From positions 209 through 64,208 of the forward strand of contig CAZFRO010000004.1 of NCBI GenBank assembly GCA_964521425.1: DNA of 64,000 nucleotides, in the 5' to 3' direction. Below, piece by piece: positions 887 to 49,150 of this stretch. The notes under the pieces are model-generated. The model was not told the DNA's origin and ran no database searches. It saw nothing but the letters and a program-made list of their open reading frames with translations. Each line of letters opens with the position of its first letter. Positions within the stretch are counted from its first letter, which is position 1. The DNA comes from an uncultured bacterium (lineage in GTDB: Bacteria > Joyebacterota > Joyebacteria > Joyebacterales > Joyebacteraceae). A program made the position numbers and the translations under genes.

Positions 887-1360
887 ATGCGGAGAAGCCT
901 TATCAGTGCCGGCCTGCTGCTCGCGGTCGCCGTTGTGCTGTCCCTGTCCGTGTCTGCGCTGGCGGACATACCGGCCGATGTCGAGGACTTCGTGAACCAC
1001 CTCGGATTCCTCGGATACGAATCGGAACAGAAGGACACCTACATCAGCATAACGCACGAGGAGAGGACGAGCTTCACGCTTCAAGGATACGAGGGAGGGA
1101 TCCTGCTCCGTGGATTCTACGGGGGCAGCGAGTACTCGAAGAGCCACAAGGGACAGTTCCTCGACATCACCAACGAGCTGAACGTCTCAGCGACAGTGAT
1201 GCGTGCGTTTGTGGATAGCGATGGGGATCTTGGCCTTGAAGCCTGGTTCCCGTCCGACTACGACAAGACCCGCTTCGCGATCTTCATGGAGGCGTGGCAG
1301 AGCGACACCGGCAACCTCCTCCTGTCGAGATACGACGACCTGGCCAATTTCCTGGAGTAG
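887..1360 (+). CDS. YbjN-like domain protein with N-terminal signal peptide
   Basis: GGGGGG RBS and ATG 887 inside ORF 761..1360. Signal peptide, then a pattern typical of the YbjN family (NELN...MRAFVDSDGDLGLEAWFP). Ends 13 bp before nqrA. Confidence 0.6.
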   Translation: MRRSLISAGLLLAVAVVLSLSVSALADIPADVEDFVNHLGFLGYESEQKDTYISITHEERTSFTLQGYEGGILLRGFYGGSEYSKSHKGQFLDITNELNVSATVMRAFVDSDGDLGLEAWFPSDYDKTRFAIFMEAWQSDTGNLLLSRYDDLANFLE

Positions 1361-1373
1361 TCTGAGGACACCA

Positions 1374-2798
1374 GTGGCAAGACTCAAGGGTGGCTACAAC
1401 ATTGGCCTCGCAGGGAGGCCCGCGTCGCGCGTCGTCGACCTTCCGGTTCCGAGCAGGCTTGTTCTGCCGCTTGCGAGCCGGTGTTTCCGCTTTGGCGATA
1501 TCCGTGTAGAAGAGGGCGCCCGCATCTCCGCCGGGACGGTTCTTGCGACCGATCCCAAGCGCTTTTCGGCTCCACTTATCGCCGCGTATGGCGGAACCGT
1601 GCGTCTCGACGGAGTCGCGGACCACTTGGTTCTCGAATCCCTGGACGGGGCGTCATCCAGCGGTTCTTCAGGCGGATCGCCGACGGATGTCCGCGACCGC
1701 CTTGTCTCTCTCGGGGCTTGGCGGTTCATCACCGACGCCCGCACGGACATGCCGGTAGATCCTGCCGCCACTGCGAATGACGTCATCGTCTCCACGGTCC
1801 ATCTCGAACCTTTCGTCGCGAGCGCCGATGCGCTTCTCACGGGGAGGCTCGATTCGTTCGTTCGCGGCCTCAAGCATCTTCATGAGCTTACCCAGGGCGG
1901 CACCGTTCACGTTGCCGTCGCTCAAGATGCGGGATTCGCGACAGAACTCGCGGGCCTCATTACAGAGCACTCCTGGTGCCGGCTCCACACGGTGGTCGCA
2001 CGCTACCCGTCTGGTCACCCACTCGTGATCCTGCGGGCTCTCGGACTTGGCCGCGATCCTGGTCGTCCCGTTTGGGCAATCGGAACAGCAGGCGTCCTGG
2101 CGATTGAAGGAGCGCTCTCATCCGGCGCACCGAGTGTAGAACGCTTGATAGCACTTGGCGGCCCGGCCGTCAGTGAGCCCGTCCATCTCAAAGCTGTCAT
2201 CGGCTATCCCATCGACGAGATCCTTGCGCATCGTCTCTGCCACGAGGATGTGCGCGTAATCAGCGGAGGCATCTTCACGGGCAGTGATGCATCGCCGGGT
2301 TCATCCGGGCTCGATGCCGAGTGCGAAGGGCTTACGGTTCTTCGTGAACTCGGGAAACGCCACATGCTTTCCTTCGCCATGCCGGGGCTCTCGCGAAACT
2401 CCTACGGCAGAACTTTCATGAGCCGCCTCTGTCAGGGCGGCCCGCCGGAGCGTTTGAACACATCCCTTGCGGGGGAACTGAGAGCATGCGTTTCGTGCGG
2501 GGAGTGCATCGATGTCTGCCCGGTCGGGATACTGCCCGGCGTCATTCACAAGTTTCTCCACGCCGACGAGATAGATGAAGTGGAGCGCATGCGTGTAGAC
2601 CTCTGCATCGAGTGCGGTCTCTGCTCCTACGTCTGTCCATCGAAGATAGAGCTTCTCTCTGACATGTGCGATGCCAGGCGACTGATACGCGAGGAGCACG
2701 AGGCTCAGAAGAAGATGGAGCTGAAGGCGAAGCTCGAGGAAGAGAAGAGACTGGCGGCCAAAGAGGCGCTCGCGGCGGAAGAGGAGGCGACAGCATGA
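1374..2798 (+). CDS. nqrA: NqrA/RnfC-family peripheral subunit retaining two [4Fe-4S] motifs
   Basis: GAGGA RBS and GTG 1374. NqrA-like N-terminus (RLKGGYNIGLAGRP). C-terminal CVSCGECIDVCP and CIECGLCSYVCP. First gene of an nqr-ordered operon. Confidence 0.8.
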   Translation: MARLKGGYNIGLAGRPASRVVDLPVPSRLVLPLASRCFRFGDIRVEEGARISAGTVLATDPKRFSAPLIAAYGGTVRLDGVADHLVLESLDGASSSGSSGGSPTDVRDRLVSLGAWRFITDARTDMPVDPAATANDVIVSTVHLEPFVASADALLTGRLDSFVRGLKHLHELTQGGTVHVAVAQDAGFATELAGLITEHSWCRLHTVVARYPSGHPLVILRALGLGRDPGRPVWAIGTAGVLAIEGALSSGAPSVERLIALGGPAVSEPVHLKAVIGYPIDEILAHRLCHEDVRVISGGIFTGSDASPGSSGLDAECEGLTVLRELGKRHMLSFAMPGLSRNSYGRTFMSRLCQGGPPERLNTSLAGELRACVSCGECIDVCPVGILPGVIHKFLHADEIDEVERMRVDLCIECGLCSYVCPSKIELLSDMCDARRLIREEHEAQKKMELKAKLEEEKRLAAKEALAAEEEATA

Positions 2799-3862
2799 AG
2801 TTGATACTGACTCTCCTCGATAAGACGCGGCCGCTCTTTCAGGAAGGCGGGCGTTTCGCCGCAGTCAAACCCATCTACGATGCCGCCGACGCTTTTCTCT
2901 TTTCGCCTCTCACGCGGACATCGCGGGCTCCGCACGTTCGTGACCCCCTCGACGTCAAACGCTACATGTCGACGGTCATCATTGCTATTGCTCCCTGTCT
3001 CCTGGCTGCAGTCCACTTCTTCGGCCTGCGTGTGCTCGCCATGGTGCTCGTCTCGTACGCCGCCGGTGGAGCGGTCGAGGTCCTCCTCGCCATGTTCAAG
3101 AAGGAGGAGATCAACGAAGGGCTTCTCGTTACCGGGATGCTCTTCCCGCTCATCCTGCCTCCAGGGCTACCGCTCTGGATGGTCGCCTTGGGCTCTGCAT
3201 TCGGCGTGCTTGTGGGGAAGGAACTCTTCGGCGGCACAGGCAGGAATCTGTTCAACCCAGCACTCATCGGGCGCGTGTTCCTGGCGCTCAGCTACCCGAA
3301 GGCCATGTCGGCGGGGTGGATCGAGCCCGGGCAGGGGCTCGTCGGCAGGGTGCTCGAGTACGCGACCGACGCCGTGACGATGGCGACGCCTCTGGCTGCC
3401 GCGAAGAGCGGTACGTGGGCGGCGCTACCCAAGCTCTTCTTCGGCAACGTCATCGGCAGCGTGGGGGAGACATCGGCGCTCGCTGTTCTCCTCGGGGGAG
3501 CGTTTCTCCTCATCATAGGGATTGCCAACTGGCGAACCGTTGCGGCGATGCTCGGCACATTCGTCATCGTGACCGCTGGTATCTACAGCGGTGACCCACA
3601 TGCGATCATCTGGCATCTTCTGTCTGGGGGGCTGCTCTTCGGGGCGTTCTTCATGGCGACGGATCCTGTCTCCAGTCCGATCATGAACTCGGCCAAATGG
3701 GTCTACGGCGCGATCATCGGGATCGCGACGGCCCTCATCAGGAATTTCACCGGCTATGTCGAGGGCGTGATGTTCGCGATACTCCTCGGCAACATCTTCG
3801 CGCCTGTCCTGGACGAGTTCTTCGTCACGGCGCATGTTCGGAGGCTTCGTGAAGAAGGGTAG
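2795..3862 (+). CDS. nqrB: NqrB/RnfD-family membrane subunit (covalent FMN)
   Basis: ATGA overlap with the upstream stop. Motifs APHVRD, EGLLVTG, FGGTGRNLFNPAL, DAVTMATPL (FMN-Thr), FMATDPVS, EGVMFAIL. Confidence 0.9.
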   Translation: MKLILTLLDKTRPLFQEGGRFAAVKPIYDAADAFLFSPLTRTSRAPHVRDPLDVKRYMSTVIIAIAPCLLAAVHFFGLRVLAMVLVSYAAGGAVEVLLAMFKKEEINEGLLVTGMLFPLILPPGLPLWMVALGSAFGVLVGKELFGGTGRNLFNPALIGRVFLALSYPKAMSAGWIEPGQGLVGRVLEYATDAVTMATPLAAAKSGTWAALPKLFFGNVIGSVGETSALAVLLGGAFLLIIGIANWRTVAAMLGTFVIVTAGIYSGDPHAIIWHLLSGGLLFGAFFMATDPVSSPIMNSAKWVYGAIIGIATALIRNFTGYVEGVMFAILLGNIFAPVLDEFFVTAHVRRLREEG

Positions 3863-4469
3863 CCTCTATACGGTCTTCTACGCGGCCGTCCTCGGGATCA
3901 TCTGCGCGGTCGCGCTGACCGCGGTCGATCGTTTCACGGACGAGAGAAAGGCCGCTAATGCGCAGGCGGAGGAGGTTCAGAACATCCTGACCGTCCTCGG
4001 CGTGCCCTTTGATGCGCAGGCGAGTGCGTCGGACCTTCTGGCCGTGTATGAATCGATGGTGGGCGAAGAGGAGATTGAGGGGCTCGAGTTCTTCGTGAGC
4101 GATCATCCGGAGGCAGGCAAGCTCCGTGCGATGCGTTTCCACGGACCGGGACTGTGGGGTCCGATCGAGGGACTCATCTGTCTCGAGGAGGACATGCGCA
4201 CGGTCTACGCCATCTCATTCTACAGACATGAAGAGACTCCCGGGCTGGGTGGTGAGATATCTTCCGCGGGCTTCCAGGATCAGTTCCGCGGGAAGGTGAT
4301 TCTAGGACCGTCGGGAGATCCGGGTATCCACCTCGTCAACGACGGCGCCGATCAGATCAACGAGATCGACGCCATCACCGGAGCTACGATGACCTGCGAC
4401 AAGGTCGAGGACATGCTGAGCGAGATCATCGAGAGGATCATTGCGAGGAGCGGGTCCAGTGGCGCCTAG
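3849..4469 (+). CDS. nqrC: NqrC/RnfG-family FMN-binding subunit
   Basis: N-terminal TM anchor; GPGLWGPI, HEETPGLGGEI, IDAITGATMT (FMN-Thr motif). GTG start 3849 inferred. Confidence 0.9.
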   Translation: MKKGSLYTVFYAAVLGIICAVALTAVDRFTDERKAANAQAEEVQNILTVLGVPFDAQASASDLLAVYESMVGEEEIEGLEFFVSDHPEAGKLRAMRFHGPGLWGPIEGLICLEEDMRTVYAISFYRHEETPGLGGEISSAGFQDQFRGKVILGPSGDPGIHLVNDGADQINEIDAITGATMTCDKVEDMLSEIIERIIARSGSSGA

Positions 4470-5133
4470 TCAGAAAGTGGCCTGTGTTACATGCGGAGGA
4501 ACCGGTCCCTGTGATGGGAAGGGTCGGGAGACACTGCGTGCCGGCGTCTGGGTGACCAATCCGGTCTCCGTCCAGGTACTCGGCATCTGTTCCGCTCTGG
4601 CCGTGACGAACAAGCTCGAGAACTCGCTCGTCATGGGTGCCGCCCTCATCTTCGTCGGTGTGGGCACCAACCTGTTCGTGTCGCTTCTCAGAAACGTGAC
4701 ACCGAGGCGCATCCGGATGATAGCGGAGGTGGCCATCATCGCCACATTCGTGATCATCTTCGACCAGATACTCAAGGCGTACTACTGGGAGATGTCGAAG
4801 CAGCTCGGTCCGTACGTCGGTCTCATCATCACGAACTGTATCATCATGGGACGCGCCGAGGCGTTCGCGCTGTCGAACCGCCCGGTTGTGTCGATGCTCG
4901 ATGGCCTCGCCAACGGTCTCGGGTACGCGGTCGTCCTTGGGATCATCGGGTTCGTTCGGGAACTCATGGGAACGGGAGCGCTCTTCGGCCACCGGATTCT
5001 AGGGGCCGAGTGGTACACGCCTAATCAGCTGATGATCCTGGCGCCCGGGGCGTTCATTGCACTCGGTTTCCTGATCGCTCTCTACAATGCGATCACCGGC
5101 ATCAACAAAGAGCTCGAAGGGAAGGGGAGCTAG
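4459..5133 (+). CDS. nqrD: NqrD/RnfE-family membrane subunit
   Basis: NPVSVQVLGICSALAVT, VGLIITNCIIMGRAEAFA, LAPGAF. GAGGAG RBS before GTG 4459. Confidence 0.9.
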   Translation: MAPSQKVACVTCGGTGPCDGKGRETLRAGVWVTNPVSVQVLGICSALAVTNKLENSLVMGAALIFVGVGTNLFVSLLRNVTPRRIRMIAEVAIIATFVIIFDQILKAYYWEMSKQLGPYVGLIITNCIIMGRAEAFALSNRPVVSMLDGLANGLGYAVVLGIIGFVRELMGTGALFGHRILGAEWYTPNQLMILAPGAFIALGFLIALYNAITGINKELEGKGS

Positions 5134-5135
5134 CG

Positions 5136-5726
5136 ATGGGTGAGGTATCACCCCTTATCATCCTCGTAGCTGCGATCTTCACCAACAACATCCTGTTGGC
5201 GAACTTCCTGGGAATGTGCTCGTTCCTCGCGGTCTCGAAGCGCATCGACACCGCGGCCGGACTCGGCGCTGCCGTGATCTTCGTCATGACGTTCACGACT
5301 GCGATCAACTACGGCGTCTATCACCACGTGCTTGTCCCGACGGGGCTCACGTTTCTCTCGTTCATCATCTTCATCGCCGTGATCGCAGCCTTCGTGCAGT
5401 TCGTGGAGATGTTCGTAGAACGCTTCAGCCCGGCGCTCTATCACGCGCTCGGGATCTTCCTGCCGCTCATCACCGTCAACTGTGCGATCCTGGGTGTGTC
5501 ACTCTTCATGATCATCAGGAACTACACATTCATGCAGTCGGTCGCGTTCGGCTTCGGTGGCGGCGTCGGGTGGACGCTGGCGATTGTCCTGATCGCGGGC
5601 TTAAGACAGAAGATGAGATACAGCATCGTCCCGGTTCCATTCAAGGGCGTCGCAATAGCCATGGTCATCACCGGCGTGATGGCAATGGCGTTCATGGGGT
5701 TCGCCGGCATGGTCACGATACAGTAG
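5136..5726 (+). CDS. nqrE: NqrE/RnfA-family membrane subunit
   Basis: FLGMCSFLAVS, LGIFLPLITVNCAILG, MAFMGFAG. Confidence 0.92.
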   Translation: MGEVSPLIILVAAIFTNNILLANFLGMCSFLAVSKRIDTAAGLGAAVIFVMTFTTAINYGVYHHVLVPTGLTFLSFIIFIAVIAAFVQFVEMFVERFSPALYHALGIFLPLITVNCAILGVSLFMIIRNYTFMQSVAFGFGGGVGWTLAIVLIAGLRQKMRYSIVPVPFKGVAIAMVITGVMAMAFMGFAGMVTIQ

Positions 5727-5730
5727 GCGA

Positions 5731-6828
5731 TTGATGATCTTCCTTCTTCCCATACTGGTCTTTGCGGGAATCCTCGTTGCTCTTGCGGTCGCGCTCACGG
5801 TTGCCGAGCGGTTGCTCGTCAACTACGGCATCTGCAAGATCGACATCAACGTGGGGGACCGTGTTCTCGAGGTCGAGGGCGGGCAGACGCTTCTCTCGGC
5901 CCTCATCGAGTCGAAGATCTTCATCCCGTCCGGCTGCGGCGGCCGTGGTTCTTGCGGGTACTGCACCATCGATGTGGTCGTAGGCGGCGGGGCCGTCCTG
6001 CCCACTGAAACGCCGTTTCTGACGCGATCGCAGGTGCGTTCGGGCGTTCGGCTGGCCTGCCAGGTCAAGGTGCGCGAGGATCTCGAGGTCAGAATCCCTG
6101 AGGAACTCCTCAACGTTCAGCTCTTCACGGCCACGGTCGAAAGCGCGCGCACACTGACACACGACATGGTCGAGACTCGCTTCAAGCTCACGGAGCCCGT
6201 GGAGATCGAGCAGCGTCCCGGGCAGTACGTGCAGCTGCAGGCGCCCTCGCCTGAGGGACCTGTCTTTCGCGCCTATTCCATCAGCTCGCCTGCGTACGAG
6301 ACAGACGTCGTCGAGCTGGTCGTTCGCCTGGTGCCCGGGGGGATCGGCTCCACCTATGCGCACAATCTGAACGAAGGGGATCCGATAATCTTCACGGGTC
6401 CGTACGGAGAGTTCCGGTTGAGCGAGGACCCCGAGGCAGAGATCGTCTGCGTCGGCGGCGGCTCGGGCATGGCGCCCTTGAAGAACATCCTCTTCAGTGT
6501 GTGCGAGCGCTGGCCGAACCGGAAGTGCTGGCTCTTCTTTGGTTGCCGCTCGGCGAAGGATGTGTTCTACCTCGACGAGTTCCGGGAGCTTGAGAAGAAG
6601 AACCCGAACTTCCACGTCATCTACGCGCTGTCCGATCCTGATCCTGAGGACGGGGAGTGGAGCGGCGAGACAGGCTTCATCCACATCTCAGTTGACAAGC
6701 ACCTTGAGACTCGCGAAGCGAAGCGGCAGGCGTTCCTCTGCGGTCCACCGCCGATGATCGAGGCCGTCATGAAGATCCTCGATGACAAGGGATTCGAAGA
6801 GGACGACATCTTCTACGACAAGTTCTAG
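5731..6828 (+). CDS. nqrF: NqrF-type NADH-oxidising subunit (TM, 2Fe-2S, FAD, NAD binding)
   Basis: CGGRGSCGYC...RLAC (2Fe-2S), RAYSISS (FAD), GGGSGMAP (NADH), CGPPPM, C-terminal YDKF. Confidence 0.9.
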   Translation: MMIFLLPILVFAGILVALAVALTVAERLLVNYGICKIDINVGDRVLEVEGGQTLLSALIESKIFIPSGCGGRGSCGYCTIDVVVGGGAVLPTETPFLTRSQVRSGVRLACQVKVREDLEVRIPEELLNVQLFTATVESARTLTHDMVETRFKLTEPVEIEQRPGQYVQLQAPSPEGPVFRAYSISSPAYETDVVELVVRLVPGGIGSTYAHNLNEGDPIIFTGPYGEFRLSEDPEAEIVCVGGGSGMAPLKNILFSVCERWPNRKCWLFFGCRSAKDVFYLDEFRELEKKNPNFHVIYALSDPDPEDGEWSGETGFIHISVDKHLETREAKRQAFLCGPPPMIEAVMKILDDKGFEEDDIFYDKF

Positions 6829-6841
6829 AAGGAGAGAGATC

Positions 6842-7294
6842 ATGGCCATCATCACGGTGGCCGACGTGCTGAGGACTGCCGAGGACGTCGAGGCGAAGCT
6901 CGTCGACTACTACGCGGAGATCGCCGAACATGCGACATCGGAGGGCGTCAAGCTTCTCGCGGACTACATGGGGAGGCACCGCCGCCACCTGTCGGAGGCT
7001 CTCGGTCGGCTCGGTGACGCCGAGCGGGAGGAGGTGAGTTCGTTCCCGATCAGGTACGAACCTCTCGCGCCCGACTGCACGTGTTTTGAGGGGCGCGAAC
7101 TTCCTCCGGACGCCACGGCTGCGGAGGTGCTGGACATCGCGATCGAGATCGATGGGTGTCTCATTGACCTGTACCGCCAGGTTCTGACGCAGGACGTTGA
7201 CCAGGAGGTCCAGGATCTCTTTGAGAGCCTGGTCCGGGCTGAGGAACGTGACACCATAGAGCTCAAGAAGATCAAGGCGATGGACTACTTCTAG
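6842..7294 (+). CDS. ferritin/rubrerythrin-like four-helix protein
   Basis: AAGGAG RBS and ATG 6842, 13 bp after nqrF. Two E-x3-E..Y helical repeats with degenerate ExxH motifs. Confidence 0.65.
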   Translation: MAIITVADVLRTAEDVEAKLVDYYAEIAEHATSEGVKLLADYMGRHRRHLSEALGRLGDAEREEVSSFPIRYEPLAPDCTCFEGRELPPDATAAEVLDIAIEIDGCLIDLYRQVLTQDVDQEVQDLFESLVRAEERDTIELKKIKAMDYF

Positions 7295-7321
7295 GCGCAT
7301 GCGGGGCTTGTCAGAATCAGA

Positions 7322-7350
7322 TTGACTGGTTCGGCCAGAGAGCATAGAAT
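7322..7350 (+). promoter_or_regulatory. sigma70-type promoter of the cytochrome operon
   Basis: TTGACT-17 bp-TAGAAT. Confidence 0.7.
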
Positions 7351-7464
7351 ACTGGTCTGAGGCACACTCAGAGGCATGCTGCCGGACCGGATGCGGAGCA
7401 GACGAGCTGACCCGATGGGAAGTTCCAGCGGGCAGGTTTGTCTGATTGTAGGGGGGGGGAGCTT

Positions 7465-8742
7465 ATGACGTTTGGAAAGGTGGGGGCAAGCGCTCTGCTT
7501 GTTCTGCTGATTCTTGCTGTCTCGACTGCTGCATGGGCCGAGTCATCATGCGTCACGTGCCATCGTGACGTCAGTCCGGGACAGGTGGCTGACTGGGAGT
7601 CCAGCAAGCACGCGAAGGTACACGTGAGCTGCGAGGTCTGCCACGGCGACGCCCACACAACGGCCGACGATGCTGCCTCGGTCTCGTTCCCGGATGAGAG
7701 TACTTGCGCCGGGTGCCACGAGGAGCAGTTCGACCAGTTCGTGCAGGGCAAGCACAACATGGGTTGGACCGCGATGAACGCTCTTCCGATTACCCACATC
7801 GAGCCCGATGCGCTCATTGAGGGTGGGAAGGGCTGCGGCGGCTGCCACAACATGGGCATCAAGACCGCCGAGCAGAAGCAGGCCCAGCTCGACATGGGAT
7901 TCCGCTACCAGACGAACTCGTGCGACGAGTGCCACACGCGGCACGCGTTCTCGAAGAAGGAAGCGCAGAACCCGCACGCATGCCAGCAGTGCCACATGGG
8001 CTACGATCATCCCCAGTGGGAGATGTGGGAGAGCTCAAAGCACGGTACACGGTGGCATGCACAGAGCGCCGGTGATCTGCCGGAAGGCGCTGCTGCGCCG
8101 ACCTGCCAGACCTGCCACATGGTCGATGGCGATCACAACAACCACACAGCGTGGGGTTTCCTTGGCGTGAGACTGCCGATGCCCGAGGACGAGCAGTGGG
8201 CGGCCGACAGGGTCGTGATCCTGAAGGCTCTCGGTGTTCTGCATCCTGATACCGGCGAAGCGACCGATCTCGTCGGTGTCGTTCAGGCTGCCGATCTCGC
8301 GCGTCTGACCGAGGAGGCCTGGCAGAGTGAGCGTGACAAGATGATCACGACTTGCAGCCAGTGTCACTCCACAACGTATGCCACCCAGCAGCTGAGCTTG
8401 GGTGATGACATGCTGAGGGACGCCGATCGGCTCATGGCACAGGCTATCGAGATCGTTGGGGATCTGTACCGCGATGGCATTATCGAGAAGCCTGAGGCCT
8501 ATCCGTACAACTACCCGAACTTCCTGTTCTTCATGCAGACGGGTGGCGGCGACATGGACAACCTGTCGTACATCGATCAGGTTCTCTGTCAGATGTACAT
8601 GAAGCATCGGATGCGCGCGTACCAGGGCTTCTTCCACGCCAATCCCGACTATGCCTACTGGTATGGTTGGGCGGGGATGACGAAGGACCTCGGTGAGATC
8701 CAGGAGCTGGCCAGAACGATGCGCGCGACCCACGGGTTGTAG
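7465..8742 (+). CDS. secreted octaheme cytochrome c, hydroxylamine oxidoreductase (Hao)-family
   Basis: Signal peptide. Eight CxxCH motifs (CVTCH, CEVCH, CAGCH, CGGCH, CDECH, CQQCH, CQTCH, CSQCH). Hao-like CHMGYDHPQWEMWESSKHG and C-terminal HANPDYAYWYGW helix region. Confidence 0.85.
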   Translation: MTFGKVGASALLVLLILAVSTAAWAESSCVTCHRDVSPGQVADWESSKHAKVHVSCEVCHGDAHTTADDAASVSFPDESTCAGCHEEQFDQFVQGKHNMGWTAMNALPITHIEPDALIEGGKGCGGCHNMGIKTAEQKQAQLDMGFRYQTNSCDECHTRHAFSKKEAQNPHACQQCHMGYDHPQWEMWESSKHGTRWHAQSAGDLPEGAAAPTCQTCHMVDGDHNNHTAWGFLGVRLPMPEDEQWAADRVVILKALGVLHPDTGEATDLVGVVQAADLARLTEEAWQSERDKMITTCSQCHSTTYATQQLSLGDDMLRDADRLMAQAIEIVGDLYRDGIIEKPEAYPYNYPNFLFFMQTGGGDMDNLSYIDQVLCQMYMKHRMRAYQGFFHANPDYAYWYGWAGMTKDLGEIQELARTMRATHGL

Positions 8743-8770
8743 CCGGTTCCGAATCTGATTTGTGATCGAC

Positions 8771-8800
8771 GAGGGGGCGTTCGTTGTCGAACGTCCCCTC
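8771..8800. other. intercistronic 13-bp hairpin without U-tract (mRNA stability or processing element?)
   Basis: GAGGGGGCGTTCG-TTGT-CGAACGTCCCCTC between the octaheme and monoheme genes. Confidence 0.45.
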
Positions 8801-8882
8801 ATCAGTCCGGACATCTGAATGCCCGAGTGGCGCAGGCACAAAAGGAAAGCGCCTCGCGCGGCATCTGGAGGGAGGTGACAGA

Positions 8883-9323
8883 ATGCGCATGCTGTTTCTT
8901 GTTCTACTCGCGCTCGCCATCGGCCTCGTGCCGGTTCTAGCGGTCGCGGCTGATGCCGAGGCCGAGGAGAAGCCGGTGGAGCTTACCGGCAAGACGATCT
9001 TCGTAGAGAGCAAGTGCGCCATGTGCCACACCGTCTTAGCCGAGGGCATAGGTGAAGTGCCGGAGGACGGCGCGGAAGCCGAAGAGAGCGACGGCCCACC
9101 TGATCTGTCGACCGTTGGCGCCTCGCGCAAGCTCGACTGGCTGCACCTCTTTCTCGTCGAGAAAGAGAAGATCGACGGCGTGAAGCACATGATGAGTTTC
9201 AAGGGCACGGAGGAAGAGTGGACAGTGATGTCCACCTGGCTTCTGAGCCTCGGCGCGCCCGCTGACACGACCGAAGGCGAGACGGAAGCCGCTACTGAAA
9301 CGGGCACACAGACAAGCGAGTAA
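8883..9323 (+). CDS. secreted monoheme cytochrome c
   Basis: GGAGG RBS, signal peptide, CAMCH, distal KHMM (candidate Met ligand). Confidence 0.8.
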   Translation: MRMLFLVLLALAIGLVPVLAVAADAEAEEKPVELTGKTIFVESKCAMCHTVLAEGIGEVPEDGAEAEESDGPPDLSTVGASRKLDWLHLFLVEKEKIDGVKHMMSFKGTEEEWTVMSTWLLSLGAPADTTEGETEAATETGTQTSE

Positions 9324-9329
9324 TCAACC

Positions 9330-9902
9330 GTGATCTACTGGGCACTGGTAGTGGGCGCCGGAGTGCTGATCGTGTTGCTCCTGGTCTTCAGGAGAACGAT
9401 GAAGTCGCTCGCGACGCGCCCCGAGAGGATTCTCGCGTTCCTGGCGATGGCGGTTCTTCCCGCCCTCTGGCTCGCGGGAATGATGGGTTACGCCGACCAC
9501 GAGTTCAAGAAGGTCTCCTTCTGTACGCAGTGTCACGAGATGTGGGAGCACGGTGCGAGCCTCACGAGCGACAGCGATGAGTCTCTGGCTGCCGTGCATT
9601 TCAGGAACAATCTCGTTGATCGGGAGACCGCGTGCTACAAGTGTCACACCCGACCCGGGCTGGCCGGGCTTGTGGAAGCCAAGAAGAAGGGTCTGCACGA
9701 TGTCTACGCCCACTATCTTGGCGAGTCCCCGGAGGTTCTCGAGATCCACGGGGAGTACGATACGCATATCTGTCTGAAGTGTCACGGTGAGGCCGAGAGC
9801 TTCCTCACGGGATGGGGCCATGAGGCGATCCTGGAGGAACTGCAATCGGGTGAGATGTCATGCTTGGAGTGCCACGACGTGGCACATGAACTGGATGGTT
9901 AG
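9330..9902 (+). CDS. NapC/NirT/NrfH-family membrane-anchored tetraheme cytochrome c
   Basis: Two N-terminal TM helices; CTQCH, CYKCH, CLKCH, CLECH; FCxxCHEM pattern. Confidence 0.85.
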   Translation: MIYWALVVGAGVLIVLLLVFRRTMKSLATRPERILAFLAMAVLPALWLAGMMGYADHEFKKVSFCTQCHEMWEHGASLTSDSDESLAAVHFRNNLVDRETACYKCHTRPGLAGLVEAKKKGLHDVYAHYLGESPEVLEIHGEYDTHICLKCHGEAESFLTGWGHEAILEELQSGEMSCLECHDVAHELDG

Positions 9903-9903
9903 T

Positions 9904-10119
9904 ATGAAGAGCATGTGGAAGCCATTCGCCGGCAAACCGCCCGTTCACATCATGCGCTGCGGAGTGCTGGCGCAGGTCTTCGGAATCCTCGTCATGTCGG
10001 TCATGCTGTTCACGAAGATCCCGCTTATCACGGTGATCTGCCTTCCGGCGGGCGCGGCTCTCATTCTGCTCGGATGTCTGATCTGGGCGTGGGCCGTGTA
10101 CTGGGTACCCCAGGACTGA
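9904..10119 (+). CDS. small (71 aa) two-TM membrane protein
   Basis: ATG 1 bp after the tetraheme stop; two hydrophobic stretches. Confidence 0.6.
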   Translation: MKSMWKPFAGKPPVHIMRCGVLAQVFGILVMSVMLFTKIPLITVICLPAGAALILLGCLIWAWAVYWVPQD

Positions 10120-10202
10120 ACCGGCAGGGCGAATGTGACGCGGCAGTCGACCGCTTGAACACGTATGAATGACAACGTCAGTGAGGTCCGCTGTCTTGAA
10201 GG

Positions 10203-10238
10203 AGCCCCGGTGCTAGGCCGGGGCTTCGTTGTGTTTGT
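10203..10238 (+). terminator. intrinsic terminator of the cytochrome operon
   Basis: AGCCCCGG-7-CCGGGGCT followed by a T-rich tail; overlaps the convergent MATE stop. Confidence 0.55.
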
Positions 10239-11580
10239 GCTCGCTCAGGAACCGCATCTCCCTGGCAAGGAGCACCAGAGCCAGGGTGGTTGCCCCTATG
10301 GATGCTGCAGGGAATGACACGAAGATCCCGGTGAGTCCGAAGAAGCGCGGCAGGATGAGGACGAGGGGGATGAGGAGAATGACCTGTCGGGCGAGCGAGA
10401 GAGCAATTGCAGAGAGCGCGCGACCGTGAGCCTGCAGGAGTGCCGCGCCCATCATCTGGAATCCGACGAGCGGGAAGGCCGCGATGATGATCCTGAGTGC
10501 CGAAGTGCTCATCTCAATGAGCGCCGCATCTCGTGAGAAGATCCCGAGGATCGACCTCGCGAAGATCATGATCAGAGAGACGGACACCACGCCGAGGACT
10601 GTCGAACGGACGACGGAGAGCCTGAAAGCCTCCTTCGCCTTGGCAAACTTCCCGGCTCCGTAGTTGAAGCCTGCGACGGGCTGGAGAGCCTGCGCAAACC
10701 CCATGATCGGCATGAACATGAAGTGCGAGACCCGGTTGATGATGCCGTAGGCGGCAATCGCAGTGTCCCCGCCGTAGAAGCCGAGACTGCGGTTCAAGAT
10801 GACCAGCACCACGCTTGCCGATACCATGCGGGCGAATGAAGCGAAGCCCACCGCGATCGTCTCGCGAACGATGGCAAGGTCGAGTCGCAGGGACTTGAAT
10901 CTGAGAGAGAGGCCACTGAAGCCGGCGGTGAAGTAGACCAGAACGAACGCTGACGCGCATCCTGTGGCTATCACGGTTGCGATCGCCGCACCCCTGACAC
11001 CCATCCCGAGCCCGAAGATGAAGACGGCATCGAGGACGATGTTGATGCCTGCACTCAGAACCATCGTGGTCATTGCGACCTTGGCCCGGCCTTCGGAACG
11101 TACGATGTTGTTGCTCCCCATCGCGAATGCCCTCAAGGGTATCCCCCAGAGCATTATGAGCAGATAGTCCCTGGCGTAGGGGAGGAGCTTCTCGCTGGAT
11201 CCCAGAAGGAGAAGAAGATCGTCGGCGAACATGAAGCCTGCGAACATGAGTGCTGCGGAGATGAGGACGATCAATGAGACGACATTGCCGAGCGTTCTTT
11301 CTGCCCGCGCTGCATTGCCCGCCCCGAGCGCCCGGGAGATGATCGATGCGCCACCCATCCCTATCATGTGACCGATAGCCATCACGAGCATCTGGATGGG
11401 GAAGACGAGCGCGATCCCACCGATACCGAGCGGACCGACAGCGTGCCCGATGAAGATCGTGTCCACGAGTCCATAGGTTGCCATGACGGCCATGCCCACG
11501 GTGGCCGGTATCGTTAGCCGCCAGAGGAGCACACCGATGTTCTCGTCACCGAGGATGTGGTTCTTGGGCCCGTTCGGCAT
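10213..11580 (-). CDS. MATE-family efflux transporter
   Basis: About 12 TM; LVDTIFIG, RSEGRAK, QPVAGFNYGA. GGGAG RBS supports ATG 11580. Confidence 0.92.
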   Translation of the reverse strand: MPNGPKNHILGDENIGVLLWRLTIPATVGMAVMATYGLVDTIFIGHAVGPLGIGGIALVFPIQMLVMAIGHMIGMGGASIISRALGAGNAARAERTLGNVVSLIVLISAALMFAGFMFADDLLLLLGSSEKLLPYARDYLLIMLWGIPLRAFAMGSNNIVRSEGRAKVAMTTMVLSAGINIVLDAVFIFGLGMGVRGAAIATVIATGCASAFVLVYFTAGFSGLSLRFKSLRLDLAIVRETIAVGFASFARMVSASVVLVILNRSLGFYGGDTAIAAYGIINRVSHFMFMPIMGFAQALQPVAGFNYGAGKFAKAKEAFRLSVVRSTVLGVVSVSLIMIFARSILGIFSRDAALIEMSTSALRIIIAAFPLVGFQMMGAALLQAHGRALSAIALSLARQVILLIPLVLILPRFFGLTGIFVSFPAASIGATTLALVLLAREMRFLSEHKHNEAPA

Positions 11581-31911: not shown

Positions 31912-33618
31912 CTACGCCCTCGTGCCTGCCCTGCGACGTGCACTCTCTTCATGGGGCTGAGCGTCAGCAGGCGTGGCCGAGAGGATCTCCGCAAGATCCT
32001 CCGTCGCGGTGCCGATCGGCTTCAGGTCGTACTCCCTCACGAGGAGATCGAGTACGTTGGCGGAGACGAAGGCAGGGAGCGTTGGGCCCAAGCGAATGCC
32101 CTTGATCCCCAGGTGCAGGAGGGTGAGCAATATCGCCACCGCCTTCTGCTCGTACCACGAGAGAATGAACGAGAGCGGGAGCTCATTGACACCGACACCG
32201 AATGCCTCGGCGAGGGCCGTAGCGATCCTGATCGCCGAGTAGGCATCGTTGCACTGCCCGATGTCCAGAAGCCGCGGTATGCCATCGATGTCGCCGAATT
32301 CGAGCTTGTTGAAACGATACTTGCCGCACGCGAGTGTCATTACGATGCTGTCTTCAGGCACGTTCTCGGCGAACTCCGTGTAGTAGTTCCTTCCGCTCTT
32401 CGCTCCGTCGCAGCCGCCGATGAGGAAGAAGTGACGGATCGAGCCTGCCTTGACGGCGTCGACTACCTTGTCGGCGATGCCCAGCACGGCATTGTGCCCG
32501 AAACCGACCGTGATGCTCTTCTCCGGCTCATCCATCTCGAAGCCGGCTTGAGCCTCCGCGGCTTCGATAACCTGCGTGAAGTCGCGATCCGAAATGTGCG
32601 TGACTCCAGGCCAGGCAACAAGGCCCGATGTGAAGATGCGGTCCATATATGAGCCGCGCGGCTTCTGGATGCAGTTCGTGGTCATGAGGATCGAGCCGGG
32701 GAACGCGTCGAACTCCTTGGCCTGGTCCTGCCACGCTCCGCCGTAGTTTCCGGCAAGATGCTGATACCGCTTGAGCTCCGGGTAGCCGTGAGCGGGGAGC
32801 ATCTCGCCGTGCGTGTAGATATTGATGCCCTTGCCCTCGGTCTGCTTCAGAAGCTCTTCAAGATCCCGAAGGTCGTGGCCCGACACGAGGATGGCCTTGC
32901 CGGCGATCGGGGTGATGCGCACCGGGGTCGGTACCGGGTGTCCGTATGTTGAAGTATTCGCGCGATCGAGCAGCTCCATGGCCTTCAGGTTGATCTCGCC
33001 GGTCTTGAGAGCCCAGGTCGTCAGCTCTTCGACCGTTGCATCCATCCGCGTCAGCACGTCGAGTGCTTCGTGGAAGAGGCCATAGACTTCCTCGTCATCG
33101 ACGCCCAGCACGTGGGCGTGATCGACGTATGCGGCCGCGCCCTTGAGACCGTACATGATGAGTTCCTGAAGGCTCGAGATGTCCTCTCCGAATGCCGCGC
33201 GCCGTGCAGAGATCGAGACCACTGCGGCCTGAGCCAGAAGTTCGGAACGCTCATCGGCAGGCTCCCAGACAGCCGCTCCGCTCAGCGCCTCGGGCGTCTC
33301 TCCTCGGGCAGCACAGGCCTTCTCGTAAAGCGCGCGAGCCCAGTCCTTCATTTCAACCGCCCTGCGAATGAGATCCATCATCCGCTCGTCATCGAAGTTG
33401 ACGTTGGTCACGGTCGTGAAGAGCGCTTCCACCGTGAAGATATCAACATCTCTGTCGACCGCACCGTGCTCACGGGCTCTGCGAGCCCACATCGAGATTC
33501 CCTTGGCGGTGTGGACCAGAAGATCCTGAAGATTCGAGGTCGACGCAGCCTTGCCGCACACCCCCGCAATCGAGCAGCCCGTACCCTTCGCCGTCTGTTC
33601 ACACTGGAAGCAGTGCAT
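31912..33618 (-). CDS. hcp: hybrid cluster protein (hydroxylamine reductase / NO reductase)
   Basis: MHCFQCEQTAKGTGC...GVCGK, GHDL, THGEMLPAHGYP, TTNC, GCDG, LACGKY, GQCNDAYS, SWYEQKA. Confidence 0.96.
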   Translation of the reverse strand: MHCFQCEQTAKGTGCSIAGVCGKAASTSNLQDLLVHTAKGISMWARRAREHGAVDRDVDIFTVEALFTTVTNVNFDDERMMDLIRRAVEMKDWARALYEKACAARGETPEALSGAAVWEPADERSELLAQAAVVSISARRAAFGEDISSLQELIMYGLKGAAAYVDHAHVLGVDDEEVYGLFHEALDVLTRMDATVEELTTWALKTGEINLKAMELLDRANTSTYGHPVPTPVRITPIAGKAILVSGHDLRDLEELLKQTEGKGINIYTHGEMLPAHGYPELKRYQHLAGNYGGAWQDQAKEFDAFPGSILMTTNCIQKPRGSYMDRIFTSGLVAWPGVTHISDRDFTQVIEAAEAQAGFEMDEPEKSITVGFGHNAVLGIADKVVDAVKAGSIRHFFLIGGCDGAKSGRNYYTEFAENVPEDSIVMTLACGKYRFNKLEFGDIDGIPRLLDIGQCNDAYSAIRIATALAEAFGVGVNELPLSFILSWYEQKAVAILLTLLHLGIKGIRLGPTLPAFVSANVLDLLVREYDLKPIGTATEDLAEILSATPADAQPHEESARRRAGTRA

Positions 33619-33717
33619 CTGTCTCCTCCGTTCTGAACCTGGTTTGCTTCTAATCATGGATCCCATCATCCGGATCCCGCTCAACACTCGCACAATCTAC
33701 GCCGGCCATGCCCAGGG

Positions 33718-44028: not shown

Positions 44029-44448
44029 ATGCAGGCGCACGAGTCCCTTCGGATGACACCAAGCCGCAGAGCGATTCTTGCCGTTCTTGGGCAGAAGCGT
44101 TGGCACCCGACGGCTGAAGAGGTGCTTCAGGAGGTAAGAAGAGCGCTCCCGGGTGTTGGATTGGCCACAGTCTATCGAAACCTCGAGGTCCTAAGAGAGC
44201 AAGGTCTCATTCGCATCGTGACGAAAGACCGGGACAAGAGGCGGTACGATGCCGTCGTCGAGAGACACTACCACGTGAGGTGCGTACAGTGTGGACGAGT
44301 GGAAGATGTGGATCTGAGCGAGCGGGAGTGGATTGAGGATGAGGCCGCAAGGGCGAGTGGCTTCGAGATCACGAACCACGAGCTGATGTTCCTGGGCACA
44401 TGTGGTGATTGCGCGAGAGCGCGCACGGCAGAGAAGGAGGAGCACTGA
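44029..44448 (+). CDS. perR: Fur-family regulator, PerR-like
   Basis: [36 protein letters not shown]; heads peroxide-defence genes. Confidence 0.8.
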
Positions 44449-44449
44449 G

Positions 44450-45022
44450 ATGGAACTCAAGGGAAGCCGGACGGAGAAGAACCTGATCGGAGCGTTCGCG
44501 GGTGAGTCGCAGGCAAGGAACCGCTACACGTACTTCGCGAGCAAGGCGCGGAAGGAAGGCTACCGCCAGATATCCGAGATCTTCGAGGAGACGGCGAATC
44601 AGGAGCGCGAGCACGCGAAGAGGCTTTTCAAGTTTCTCGAAGGTGGTGAGGTCGAGATAACAGCATCGTTCCCCGCCGGTGTCATCGGTACGACGCTTGA
44701 GAATCTCGAGGCCGGTGCCGGGGGAGAGAACTACGAGTGGACTGAGATGTATCCGTCGTTCGCGAAGATCGCGCACGAAGAGGGCTTCTATGAGATCGCG
44801 ACGGTCTTCGAGTCGATCGCGATCGCTGAGAAGCAGCACGAGAAGCGCTACAACGATCTCGCCGGGAACATAGAGGCCGGAAGGGTCTTCAAGCGCGAGA
44901 ACAAGGTTGTCTGGCGTTGCATGAACTGTGGCTATCTCCACGAGGGCACCGAGGCTCCGGAGAACTGTCCTGCATGCGCGCATCCGCAGGCACATTTTGA
45001 GATCCTGGGCGAGAACTGGTAA
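44450..45022 (+). CDS. rbr: rubrerythrin
   Basis: [41 protein letters not shown]. Confidence 0.96.
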
Positions 45023-47944: not shown

Positions 47945-49150
47945 ATGCCAGGTCCCTTCCAGGCGACAAGGGTCAGTGAGCATGTCTATTGGGTGGGCGG
48001 GATCGATTGGTCGTCGCGGGATTTTCATGGCTACTCGACGCCGCGCGGAACGACCTACAACGCCTATCTGATACTTGCTGACACCGTAACGCTGATCGAC
48101 ACGGTCAAGGCGCAGTACCGCGACGAACTCATGTACCGCATTGCTTCCGTCATAGATCCGACCGAGATCTCGCTCATCGTGTCCAACCACGCGGAGCAGG
48201 ATCACTCCGGTAGCCTCGTGCCTGTCGCTCGAATCGTGAAGCCGGATCGCATTGTCGCATCTCCGATGGGTGTCAAGGCCCTGGCGAGGCACACTCACGG
48301 TGCACTCGAGGTCGACACCGTGAGTGACGGGGAGACCATCTCTCTCGGGAACATGGATCTCAGCTTCGTCGAGACGCGGATGCTCCACTGGCCCGACAGC
48401 ATGTTCTCCTATCTCGGGGCGGACGAGATCCTGTTCACGCAGGATGCATTTGGAATGCACCTGGCTTCGTCCGAGCGCTTCGACGACGAGTTGGACCCCG
48501 TCATCCTTGAGAGTGAGGCGGCGAAGTACTTCGCGAACATCCTCCTTCCTTACTCGAAGCTGATAGGCAAACTGCTCGAGCGCGTCGGGCAGCTCAATCT
48601 GCCGCTCAAGATGGTCGCACCCGATCACGGACCCATCTGGCGCACGAGATTCGACTGGATAGCGGGCCTCTACGACAAGTGGTGGAGGCAGGAGCCTACG
48701 CTCAAGGCCGTCGTGACGTACGACACGATGTGGCAGAGTACGGACCTTCTGGCCCGTTCGATTGCCGGGGGTTTGACGGCGGGTGGGGCCTCGCCGAAGC
48801 TCCATCAGCTTCGTGCGAGCCACAGGAGCGATGTCGCCGCGGATATGCTTCAATCCGGAGCGCTCGTCGTTGGAAGCCCCACGATCAACAACCAGATGTT
48901 CCCGACGGTCGCGGATCTCCTGAGCTACGTCAATGGCCTCAAGCCCGCGAACCTCATAGGGGCTGCATTCGGCTCGTACGGCTGGAGCGGCGAGGGGGTG
49001 AAGATGGTGAACGACACCCTGAGAGAGATGAAGGTGGAACTCATCTCGGAGCCACTTCGGGTCCAGTTCGTTCCCGATGAGGAGGAACTGGCCCGTGCGT
49101 GGGCGCTGGGGGAGGCCATAGCCGCGGAATTGAAGACCCGGGTGGCTTGA
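47945..49150 (+). CDS. fprA: flavodiiron protein (O2/NO reductase)
   Basis: GTTYNAYL, NHAEQDHSG, MLHWPDSM, APDHG, flavodoxin domain with FGSYGWSG. Confidence 0.95.
   Translation: MPGPFQATRVSEHVYWVGGIDWSSRDFHGYSTPRGTTYNAYLILADTVTLIDTVKAQYRDELMYRIASVIDPTEISLIVSNHAEQDHSGSLVPVARIVKPDRIVASPMGVKALARHTHGALEVDTVSDGETISLGNMDLSFVETRMLHWPDSMFSYLGADEILFTQDAFGMHLASSERFDDELDPVILESEAAKYFANILLPYSKLIGKLLERVGQLNLPLKMVAPDHGPIWRTRFDWIAGLYDKWWRQEPTLKAVVTYDTMWQSTDLLARSIAGGLTAGGASPKLHQLRASHRSDVAADMLQSGALVVGSPTINNQMFPTVADLLSYVNGLKPANLIGAAFGSYGWSGEGVKMVNDTLREMKVELISEPLRVQFVPDEEELARAWALGEAIAAELKTRVA

Follow-up and report, generated by a model that had tools for sequence, protein, structure and literature searches.

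The HAO family of octaheme cytochromes comprises oxidative enzymes, such as that of the hydroxylamine-ubiquinone redox module (HURM), and enzymes regarded as reductive, such as the epsilon-Hao of Campylobacterota, for which a reverse-HURM has been proposed in Nautilia profundicola (PMC3701875). To date, the reading of HAO direction from genomes has rested on one residue: a Tyr at the position that is cross-linked to heme is taken to mark oxidative enzymes, and its absence to mark reductive ones (PMC8042395), a rule that has been adopted in metagenome surveys (PMC8940962). More recently, reductive HAOs have been reported to carry His at this site, and the HAOs of Desulfobacterota to include a separate change from His to Tyr (PMC12758564). 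Here, a locus for an HAO-family protein is described in a window of 64,000 nucleotides (the whole stretch of DNA analysed; contig CAZFRO010000004.1 of assembly GCA_964521425.1, positions 209 to 64,208) from an uncultured bacterium of the family Joyebacteraceae, whose 2.45-Mb genome is rated 100% complete. To our knowledge, the phylum has no cultured members.

Four consecutive genes, encoding the octaheme protein, a monoheme cytochrome c, a tetraheme membrane cytochrome and a 71-residue protein (Table 1), appear to form one transcription unit, as they share one promoter-like site and one terminator-like site. The unit may be understood as a periplasmic terminal enzyme together with the wire that feeds it, the wire being a three-gene cassette that would carry electrons between the quinones of the membrane and the periplasm. 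The cassette is genetically coupled, in this family of Eisenbacteria, to an NQR-type NADH:quinone oxidoreductase, and the HAO would be an optional module, inserted between the two as terminal enzyme. According to the reading that we favor, to which we give about one chance in two, electrons would pass from NADH to NQR, and from the resulting quinol through the NrfH-like cytochrome and the monoheme cytochrome c to the HAO, whose predicted five-coordinate heme 4 and Asp-His pair would reduce a small N-oxide (nitrite, NO or hydroxylamine), either for respiration or for detoxification.

The membership of the octaheme protein in the HAO family, already proposed in an initial annotation made from the DNA letters alone, is upheld by profile and structure. 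The protein carries a Sec-type signal peptide and eight CxxCH motifs, with no CxxCK, and matches PF13447 with 88.7 bits (cut-off 21.9). Its best solved relatives in phmmer searches are Kuenenia HAOr (6h5l, E 2.7e-27) and the Nitrosomonas enzyme NeHAO (1.5e-24), and Brocadia HAO, KsHOX, HDH and IhOCC are also retrieved. An AlphaFold2 (AF2) monomer model built with 68 sequences reaches a predicted local distance difference test score (pLDDT) of 91.3, and the top 11 Foldseek matches in the PDB are all HAO, HOX, HDH, HAOr or IhOCC (probability 1.0, TM-score 0.59-0.67), a set in which oxidative and reductive members are not separated. The Asp-His pair following heme 6 (CHxGxDH) is kept, CQQCHMGYDHPQWE aligning with CATCHSGVDHNN of NeHAO, while no reliable alignment to the octaheme protein was achieved for Tyr358 of NeHAO (precursor numbering), a residue of the distal pocket. 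The protein reaches no equivalog threshold; with the HDH equivalog NF052343 it scores 79.7 bits where 900 are required. Two further candidates for relatives were rejected: the Desulfurivibrio octaheme nitrite reductase, which is of the CxxCK-containing ONR/TaNiR type and belongs to another family, and the multiheme selenoenzyme MccSep, which is pentaheme and unrelated.

The residue that occupies the cross-link column depends on the anchor chosen for the alignment. In NeHAO the spacing is H459-x7-Y467-x2-G470, which is identical in KsHOX. The octaheme clade to which our protein belongs shows H400-A-N-P-D-Y-A-Y407-W408-Y409-G410 (numbered in a 434-residue frame, in which Y407 corresponds to Y398 of the 425-residue protein), a loop one residue shorter than that of NeHAO. 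Counted from the His, the column falls on Trp408; counted from the Gly-Trp, it falls on Tyr407. The initial annotation held that HANPDYAYWYGW puts Trp in the place of the cross-linking Tyr, a placement that follows from counting from the His, as in the convention that PMC8940962 ascribes to Haase et al., in which Trp takes the place of the Tyr and Met lies eight residues before it.

This ambiguity of one residue in the published alignments is settled by a short-loop variant from comammox bacteria. Among 115 close relatives of NeHAO two loop lengths are found, AHVNPGGWTYTEGW and AHQ[HY]WG[YF]TYTVGW, the second of which occurs in Nitrospira proteins bearing the name haoA (P0341, P0368, P0382, P0383). 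The short form of comammox HaoA has the exact spacing of the octaheme clade, and an ungapped alignment of both puts its Tyr489 on Tyr407. The short loop thus indicates that it is the Gly-Trp behind the cross-link Tyr, and not the His before it, that sets the position of the Tyr, and the convention by which the Trp of epsilon-Hao is equivalent to the Tyr would therefore be off by one column. The same pairing of Tyr407 with Tyr467 of NeHAO is obtained with phmmer, with a joint L-INS-i alignment (MAFFT, 80 sequences) and with hhalign (high column confidence). On the evidence of these four alignments, Tyr407 (Y398) occupies the HAO cross-link column and the placement of Trp is off by one residue. 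Up to the Tyr, the two loop lengths of nitrifier HAOs read HVNPGGWTY in Nitrosomonas (P0274) and HQ[HY]WG[YF]TY in Nitrospira haoA.

All 121 closest homologs have Tyr407, and all have Tyr405, Trp408 and Tyr409 too. Elsewhere the cross-link column holds Trp in HAOr, Gln in an epsilon-Hao-like paralog and His in most other clades, the last in agreement with PMC12758564, whose supplement does not name the Tyr-bearing clade of Desulfobacterota. The epsilon-Hao-like paralog is encoded elsewhere in the same genome (contig C1:5655-7313, + strand; 552 residues, 8 CxxCH) with no NrfH gene of its own, and bears the epsilon-Hao signature MMGADYTQWHGIW (MMGADYTQW), with Met for the conserved His and Trp eight residues on. 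In the octaheme protein of the unit, His400 stands in the Met column, so the signature is lacking. The enzyme of the unit is thus not of the epsilon-Hao type suggested in the initial annotation, whereas the C1 paralog is. The argument of the annotation for reduction is no longer supported, as it rested on a Trp replacing the cross-link Tyr, which the alignments contradict. The annotation had itself named conservation of the cross-link Tyr as a ground for refuting its reading, and at the sequence level this conservation is observed.

A Tyr in this column raises the possibility of an oxidative module resembling HURM, in which Tyr398 would be cross-linked to heme 4 (P460) of the neighboring subunit and hydroxylamine or hydrazine would be oxidised, the electrons passing via the monoheme cytochrome c (as an analogue of c554) and the NapC/NirT-family cytochrome (as an analogue of cM552) into the quinone pool. 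Apart from the four alignments and the conservation among the 121 homologs, this proposal gains from a gene order resembling that of haoA-haoB-cycA-cycB (enzyme, soluble cytochrome, NapC/NirT cytochrome and membrane protein), and from the separate His-to-Tyr transition reported for Desulfobacterota. Four points speak against a cross-link. In a FastTree tree the octaheme clade is separate and far from the nitrifier and anammox clade, and its nearest sampled relatives hold Leu or another non-Tyr residue in the column. Tyr is found only sporadically at this variable column in the L-INS-i alignment, in seven other representatives. The flanks of Tyr407 are A-Y-W, and not the near-invariant T-Y-T. 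Finally, the AF2 model places Tyr407 within the initial turns of the final helix (pLDDT 97-99), whereas the Tyr of comammox HaoA lies in a 10-residue loop between helices of a weak model (pLDDT 64.5), both being heme-free monomers. A real Tyr-heme cross-link in the octaheme protein is hence regarded as doubtful. The oxidative module as a whole is less probable still, as no oxidase or other electron sink was found (AMO and HZS were not searched for) and the organism appears to be strictly anaerobic. We give a similarly low rank to the proposal that the entire clade (more than 5,500 sequences from Eisenbacteria, Desulfobacterota and Nitrospirota) is an independently evolved, Tyr-cross-linked P460-type HAO of strict anaerobes, connected in this genome to NQR and the quinone pool by a monoheme cytochrome c and a cytochrome of NapC/NirT type.

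The clade is very large and tightly conserved, with more than 5,557 matching proteins at 65-78% identity from Eisenbacteria, Desulfobacterota, Nitrospirota and Krumholzibacteriota, and the wider family has 1,363 matching representatives when clustered at 50%; no biochemical work on this clade was found in the literature. Beyond this phylum it is mostly encoded by a stand-alone gene, whose frequent neighbors are flavodiiron, Hcp, rubrerythrin, peroxiredoxin, Fur-like and sensor/regulator genes. In Desulfobacterales metagenome-assembled genomes (L011, L016, L052 and L076) the order HAO(425 aa)-(rubrerythrin)-NapC/NirT-HAO2(~470 aa) is observed, where HAO2 is a longer HAO paralog behind the NapC-type gene, adjoining a member of the octaheme clade. 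The window itself encodes Hcp, a Fur-like regulator, rubrerythrin and a flavodiiron protein, families that also occur beside the genes of this clade in Desulfobacterota and Nitrospirota. The initial annotation had linked hcp and fprA (the flavodiiron gene) to the unit; both are indeed in the window, but at a distance of 22-38 kb and in separate units.

These neighborhoods have suggested to us that the HAO-type protein might act on a non-nitrogen substrate or in stress defence (against peroxide, O2, sulfite or tetrathionate), with NQR supplying the reducing power. The usually stand-alone copies of Desulfobacterota and Nitrospirota, set among rubrerythrin, peroxiredoxin, Fur/PerR-like and flavodiiron genes, are in line with this role, as are the promiscuity of multiheme cytochromes toward nitrogen and sulfur substrates (PMC13510729) and a genome without nitrate reductase. 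Nevertheless, every characterised HAO-family enzyme acts on nitrogen compounds (PMC8042395), the protein retains the Asp-His pair characteristic of HAO chemistry, and Hcp and flavodiiron neighbors suit nitrosative as well as oxidative chemistry. We consider such a role unlikely, if somewhat less so than the oxidative module.

The other proteins of the unit are consistent with electron transfer at the membrane. The monoheme cytochrome c (PF00034, 33 bits) has an N-terminal signal peptide or anchor and an acidic tail, and is weakly similar to NorC, CcoO and c555. The tetraheme protein, with four CxxCH motifs, matches PF03264 with 37.9 bits (cut-off 24.1) and falls below the equivalogs of the family, TIGR03153 (NrfH; 40.4 against 134.2) and TIGR02161 (NapC/NirT; 18.2 against 310.6). 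Its first heme motif is CxxCHxM, and both the sequence CTQCHEM and two N-terminal transmembrane helices are kept in 12 relatives. Two helices are unusual, a single N-terminal one being the norm of the NapC/NirT/NrfH family. Directly behind the NrfH-like gene there is always the gene for the 71-residue protein, which shows two hydrophobic helices and no family match in profile searches; a word-based search retrieved three close homologs, and tblastn on related genomes showed it to be conserved at this place in at least 15 of them. The gene list of the initial annotation (8-heme, monoheme, tetraheme and two-helix protein) is therefore borne out by the heme motifs, by PF13447, PF00034 and PF03264, and by the two hydrophobic helices.

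The link of this cassette with NQR was followed in 31 related genomes (one family, eight genera), among which the NrfH-like gene is present in 19, this HAO in 12 and an FeS-type NqrA in 15. HAO and NQR occur together in 11 genomes, HAO without NQR in one, NQR without HAO in four, and neither in 15 (Fisher p 1.7e-4); the corresponding counts for HAO and the NrfH-like gene are 11, 1, 8 and 11 (Fisher p 0.008), neither comparison being corrected for shared ancestry. Across these relatives, the trio of monoheme, NrfH-like and small-protein genes is a constant unit that takes different positions around NQR. The arrangement of the window, nqrA-F-orf150-HAO-mono-nrfH-small, is found again in G026. 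In genus g4 the trio lies upstream of nqrA, with orf150-HAO after nqrF, and G010, G008 and G007 show mono-nrfH-small-nqrA-F(-orf150-HAO), while in genus g2 the three parts sit at separate loci. The gene orf150, which encodes a 150-residue cytoplasmic protein, is always behind nqrF, and precedes the HAO wherever the latter is syntenic.

Two genomes of the same genus as our bacterium (G019 and G020, also L103 and L104) have the order nqrA-F-orf150-mono-nrfH-small, with no HAO. According to the alignment of their intergenic DNA, they lack exactly the 1472-bp segment listed in Table 1, and both flanks are conserved. The -35 box TTGACT is common to the window and to both genomes; the -10 half lies inside the segment, and so differs. 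The HAO is thus an optional, dispensable module.

From this it could be argued that the main job of the cassette is unrelated to the HAO, and that it serves to connect NQR and the quinone pool with different partners in the periplasm or the outer membrane (for instance, an outer-membrane porin-cytochrome), with the HAO as an interchangeable client. In fact, eight of the 19 cassette-bearing genomes have no HAO, so that the cassette must have another partner there, and the same-genus genomes devoid of precisely the hao segment retain the -35 box and the cassette. A possible client is encoded on contig C10 (21706-23505, + strand), where the gene for a secreted protein of 437 residues with a single N-terminal CxxCH (SCTTCH) lies immediately ahead of one for a monoheme cytochrome c that shares 45% identity with that of the unit. 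The 437-residue protein has no Pfam match, and we take it to be reminiscent of Cyc2-type porin-cytochromes; the C10 pair may be a further client of this cassette. However, the Cyc2-like assignment is tentative, and 11 of the 12 genomes with the HAO have the cassette as well. A cassette mainly devoted to other partners seems improbable to us as the full explanation, and it would be compatible with the chain from NADH to the HAO rather than exclusive of it.

No NrfA, no heme-copper oxidase or Nor, and no bd oxidase were found in the genome. Nap and Nar were not found either, the two PF00384 proteins being a GltD-Fdh-like fusion and an Fdh/NuoG-like protein. There is no other recognised quinol-oxidising terminal enzyme in the genome, NirK, NirS, NosZ, AMO and HZS not having been searched for. 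Cytochrome c maturation genes are present, and the tetraheme gene of the unit is the only NapC/NirT gene of the genome. A reductive assignment of the HAO is plausible from this context, because of the adjacency to NQR, the lack of an electron sink for an oxidative enzyme and the anaerobic host. The NADH-to-quinone-to-Hao chain advanced in the initial annotation accordingly keeps the support of synteny, co-occurrence and the lack of another recognised terminal enzyme, but loses that of the residue at the cross-link column.

Several observations weigh against the chain that we favor. As no nitrate reductase was found, nitrite would have to come from outside the cell. MenD (TIGR00173) and MqnA (PF02621) were not found in the genome, so that de novo menaquinone synthesis is unproven and the quinone step is read from family membership, which also holds for the feeding of the HAO by quinol. 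The only quinone-related gene seen encodes a UbiA-family prenyltransferase (C5:51175-52128), right after rnfB of a separate Rnf operon; quinone scavenging or a novel head-group pathway is possible. In addition, the HAO of the unit aligns in its cross-link column with the oxidative enzymes, as do all of its 121 closest homologs, and it is the C1 paralog, and not this enzyme, that is of epsilon-Hao type. Finally, the tie of the cassette to NQR is no weaker than its tie to the HAO.

The layout of the region is given in Table 1. The promoter that the initial annotation had assigned to the unit corresponds to a sigma-70-like site. The position directly behind the Nqr-like operon is correct in that the unit follows nqrA-F, although orf150 lies in between. 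The product of orf150 has a CxC motif and a faint full-length similarity to rubrerythrin/ferritin-like proteins (PF02915, E 0.009, below the cut-off), and may be an NQR accessory factor. The octaheme gene likely starts at the ATG used in Table 1, which lies behind a G-run resembling a ribosome-binding site and yields a protein of the same length as its homologs. The stem-loop past the hao stop codon is possibly a transcript-stabilising or attenuating hairpin (RNAfold, -38.8 kcal/mol for the whole stretch 8743-8830 that contains it).

Table 1. Coordinates of the octaheme unit, its NQR-side neighbors and other genes of the window mentioned in the text
Feature	Position	Strand	Remarks
NQR-type operon nqrABCDEF	~1374..6828	+	NqrA with added 2x[4Fe-4S] domain; NqrB-F with expected Pfam families
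150-residue cytoplasmic ORF (orf150)	6842..7294	+	between nqrF and octaheme unit
Sigma-70-like promoter TTGACT-17 nt-TAGAAT	7322..7350	+	10/12 positions match; sole + strand match in 900-10400
1472-bp segment (-10 box, leader, hao, stem-loop)	7337..8808		precisely missing in two same-genus genomes
HAO-family octaheme cytochrome c, predicted periplasmic	7465..8742	+	425 aa; signal peptide ending AWA/E
GC-rich 13-bp stem-loop just past hao stop codon	8771..8801	+	without T run
Monoheme class-I-like cytochrome c	8883..9323	+	146 aa from ATG 8883; CAMCH
Tetraheme NapC/NirT/NrfH-family membrane cytochrome	9330..9902	+	190 aa
71-residue protein with two transmembrane helices	9904..10119	+	no known family
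Intrinsic-terminator-like hairpin	10201..10227	+	11 pairs, 8 GC; between operon and convergent MATE gene
hcp	31912..33693	-	separate unit
Fur-like regulator and rubrerythrin	44041..45022	+	
Flavodiiron gene (fprA)	47945..49150	+	separate unit

The interest of this very abundant, uncharacterised clade from anoxic sediments lies in the fact that all 121 closest homologs of our protein have Tyr at the key position, in a context that in other respects points to reduction. Should the Tyr of the clade be cross-linked, strict anaerobes would carry out oxidative hydroxylamine chemistry, and the unit would be an anaerobic, NO-producing module for the oxidation of hydroxylamine or hydrazine in an organism that is neither a nitrifier nor an anammox bacterium. 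Should it not be, this residue would be no reliable guide to direction, and many genes annotated as hao would have to be reassessed. Whichever applies, the recurrent coupling of NQR with a NapC/NirT cassette suggests a compact respiratory chain from NADH to the periplasm.

Among the described systems, the unit shares with the Campylobacterota system of N. profundicola an HAO-family octaheme protein encoded with a NapC/NrfH-type tetraheme cytochrome. In both cases the host is an anaerobe with Hcp, and the proposed role is the reduction of nitrite or hydroxylamine at the expense of quinol. In the description given in PMC8940962, epsilon-Hao has Met for the conserved His and Trp eight residues on, whereas here the His is kept and a Tyr aligns with the cross-link position. 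In addition, the unit has a monoheme cytochrome c, a small subunit with two transmembrane helices, an NrfH-like protein with two such helices and the linkage to NQR. The HURM of ammonia oxidisers likewise combines an octaheme HAO that has Tyr in the cross-link column with a soluble shuttle of the cytochrome c type, a NapC/NirT cytochrome and one more membrane protein. However, the shuttle of the unit has one CxxCH while the c554 of HURM is tetraheme; its small protein, having no family match, receives no HaoB assignment; and its HAO is of 425 residues (~570 in HURM), phylogenetically distant, predicted to differ in local structure around the Tyr and encoded in a host without an oxidase.

The HAOr of Kuenenia stuttgartiensis (Kustc0458/0457) is the best match among solved structures in both sequence and fold, at an identity of ~25%. 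Both proteins have the same loop length between the His and the Gly, and both have a small c-type cytochrome as partner, but HAOr holds Trp in the cross-link column and its partner is a diheme cytochrome. We know of no membrane quinol dehydrogenase in the HAOr operon. Like NrfHA, finally, the unit has a membrane-bound NrfH-type tetraheme cytochrome with a CxxCHxM first heme that would feed a periplasmic multiheme N-oxide reductase. In contrast to NrfHA, its putative catalytic subunit is an octaheme, HAO-type protein with CxxCH motifs throughout, where NrfA is pentaheme with a CxxCK, and its NrfH-like protein reaches ~40 of the 134 bits of the equivalog cut-off and has two transmembrane helices.

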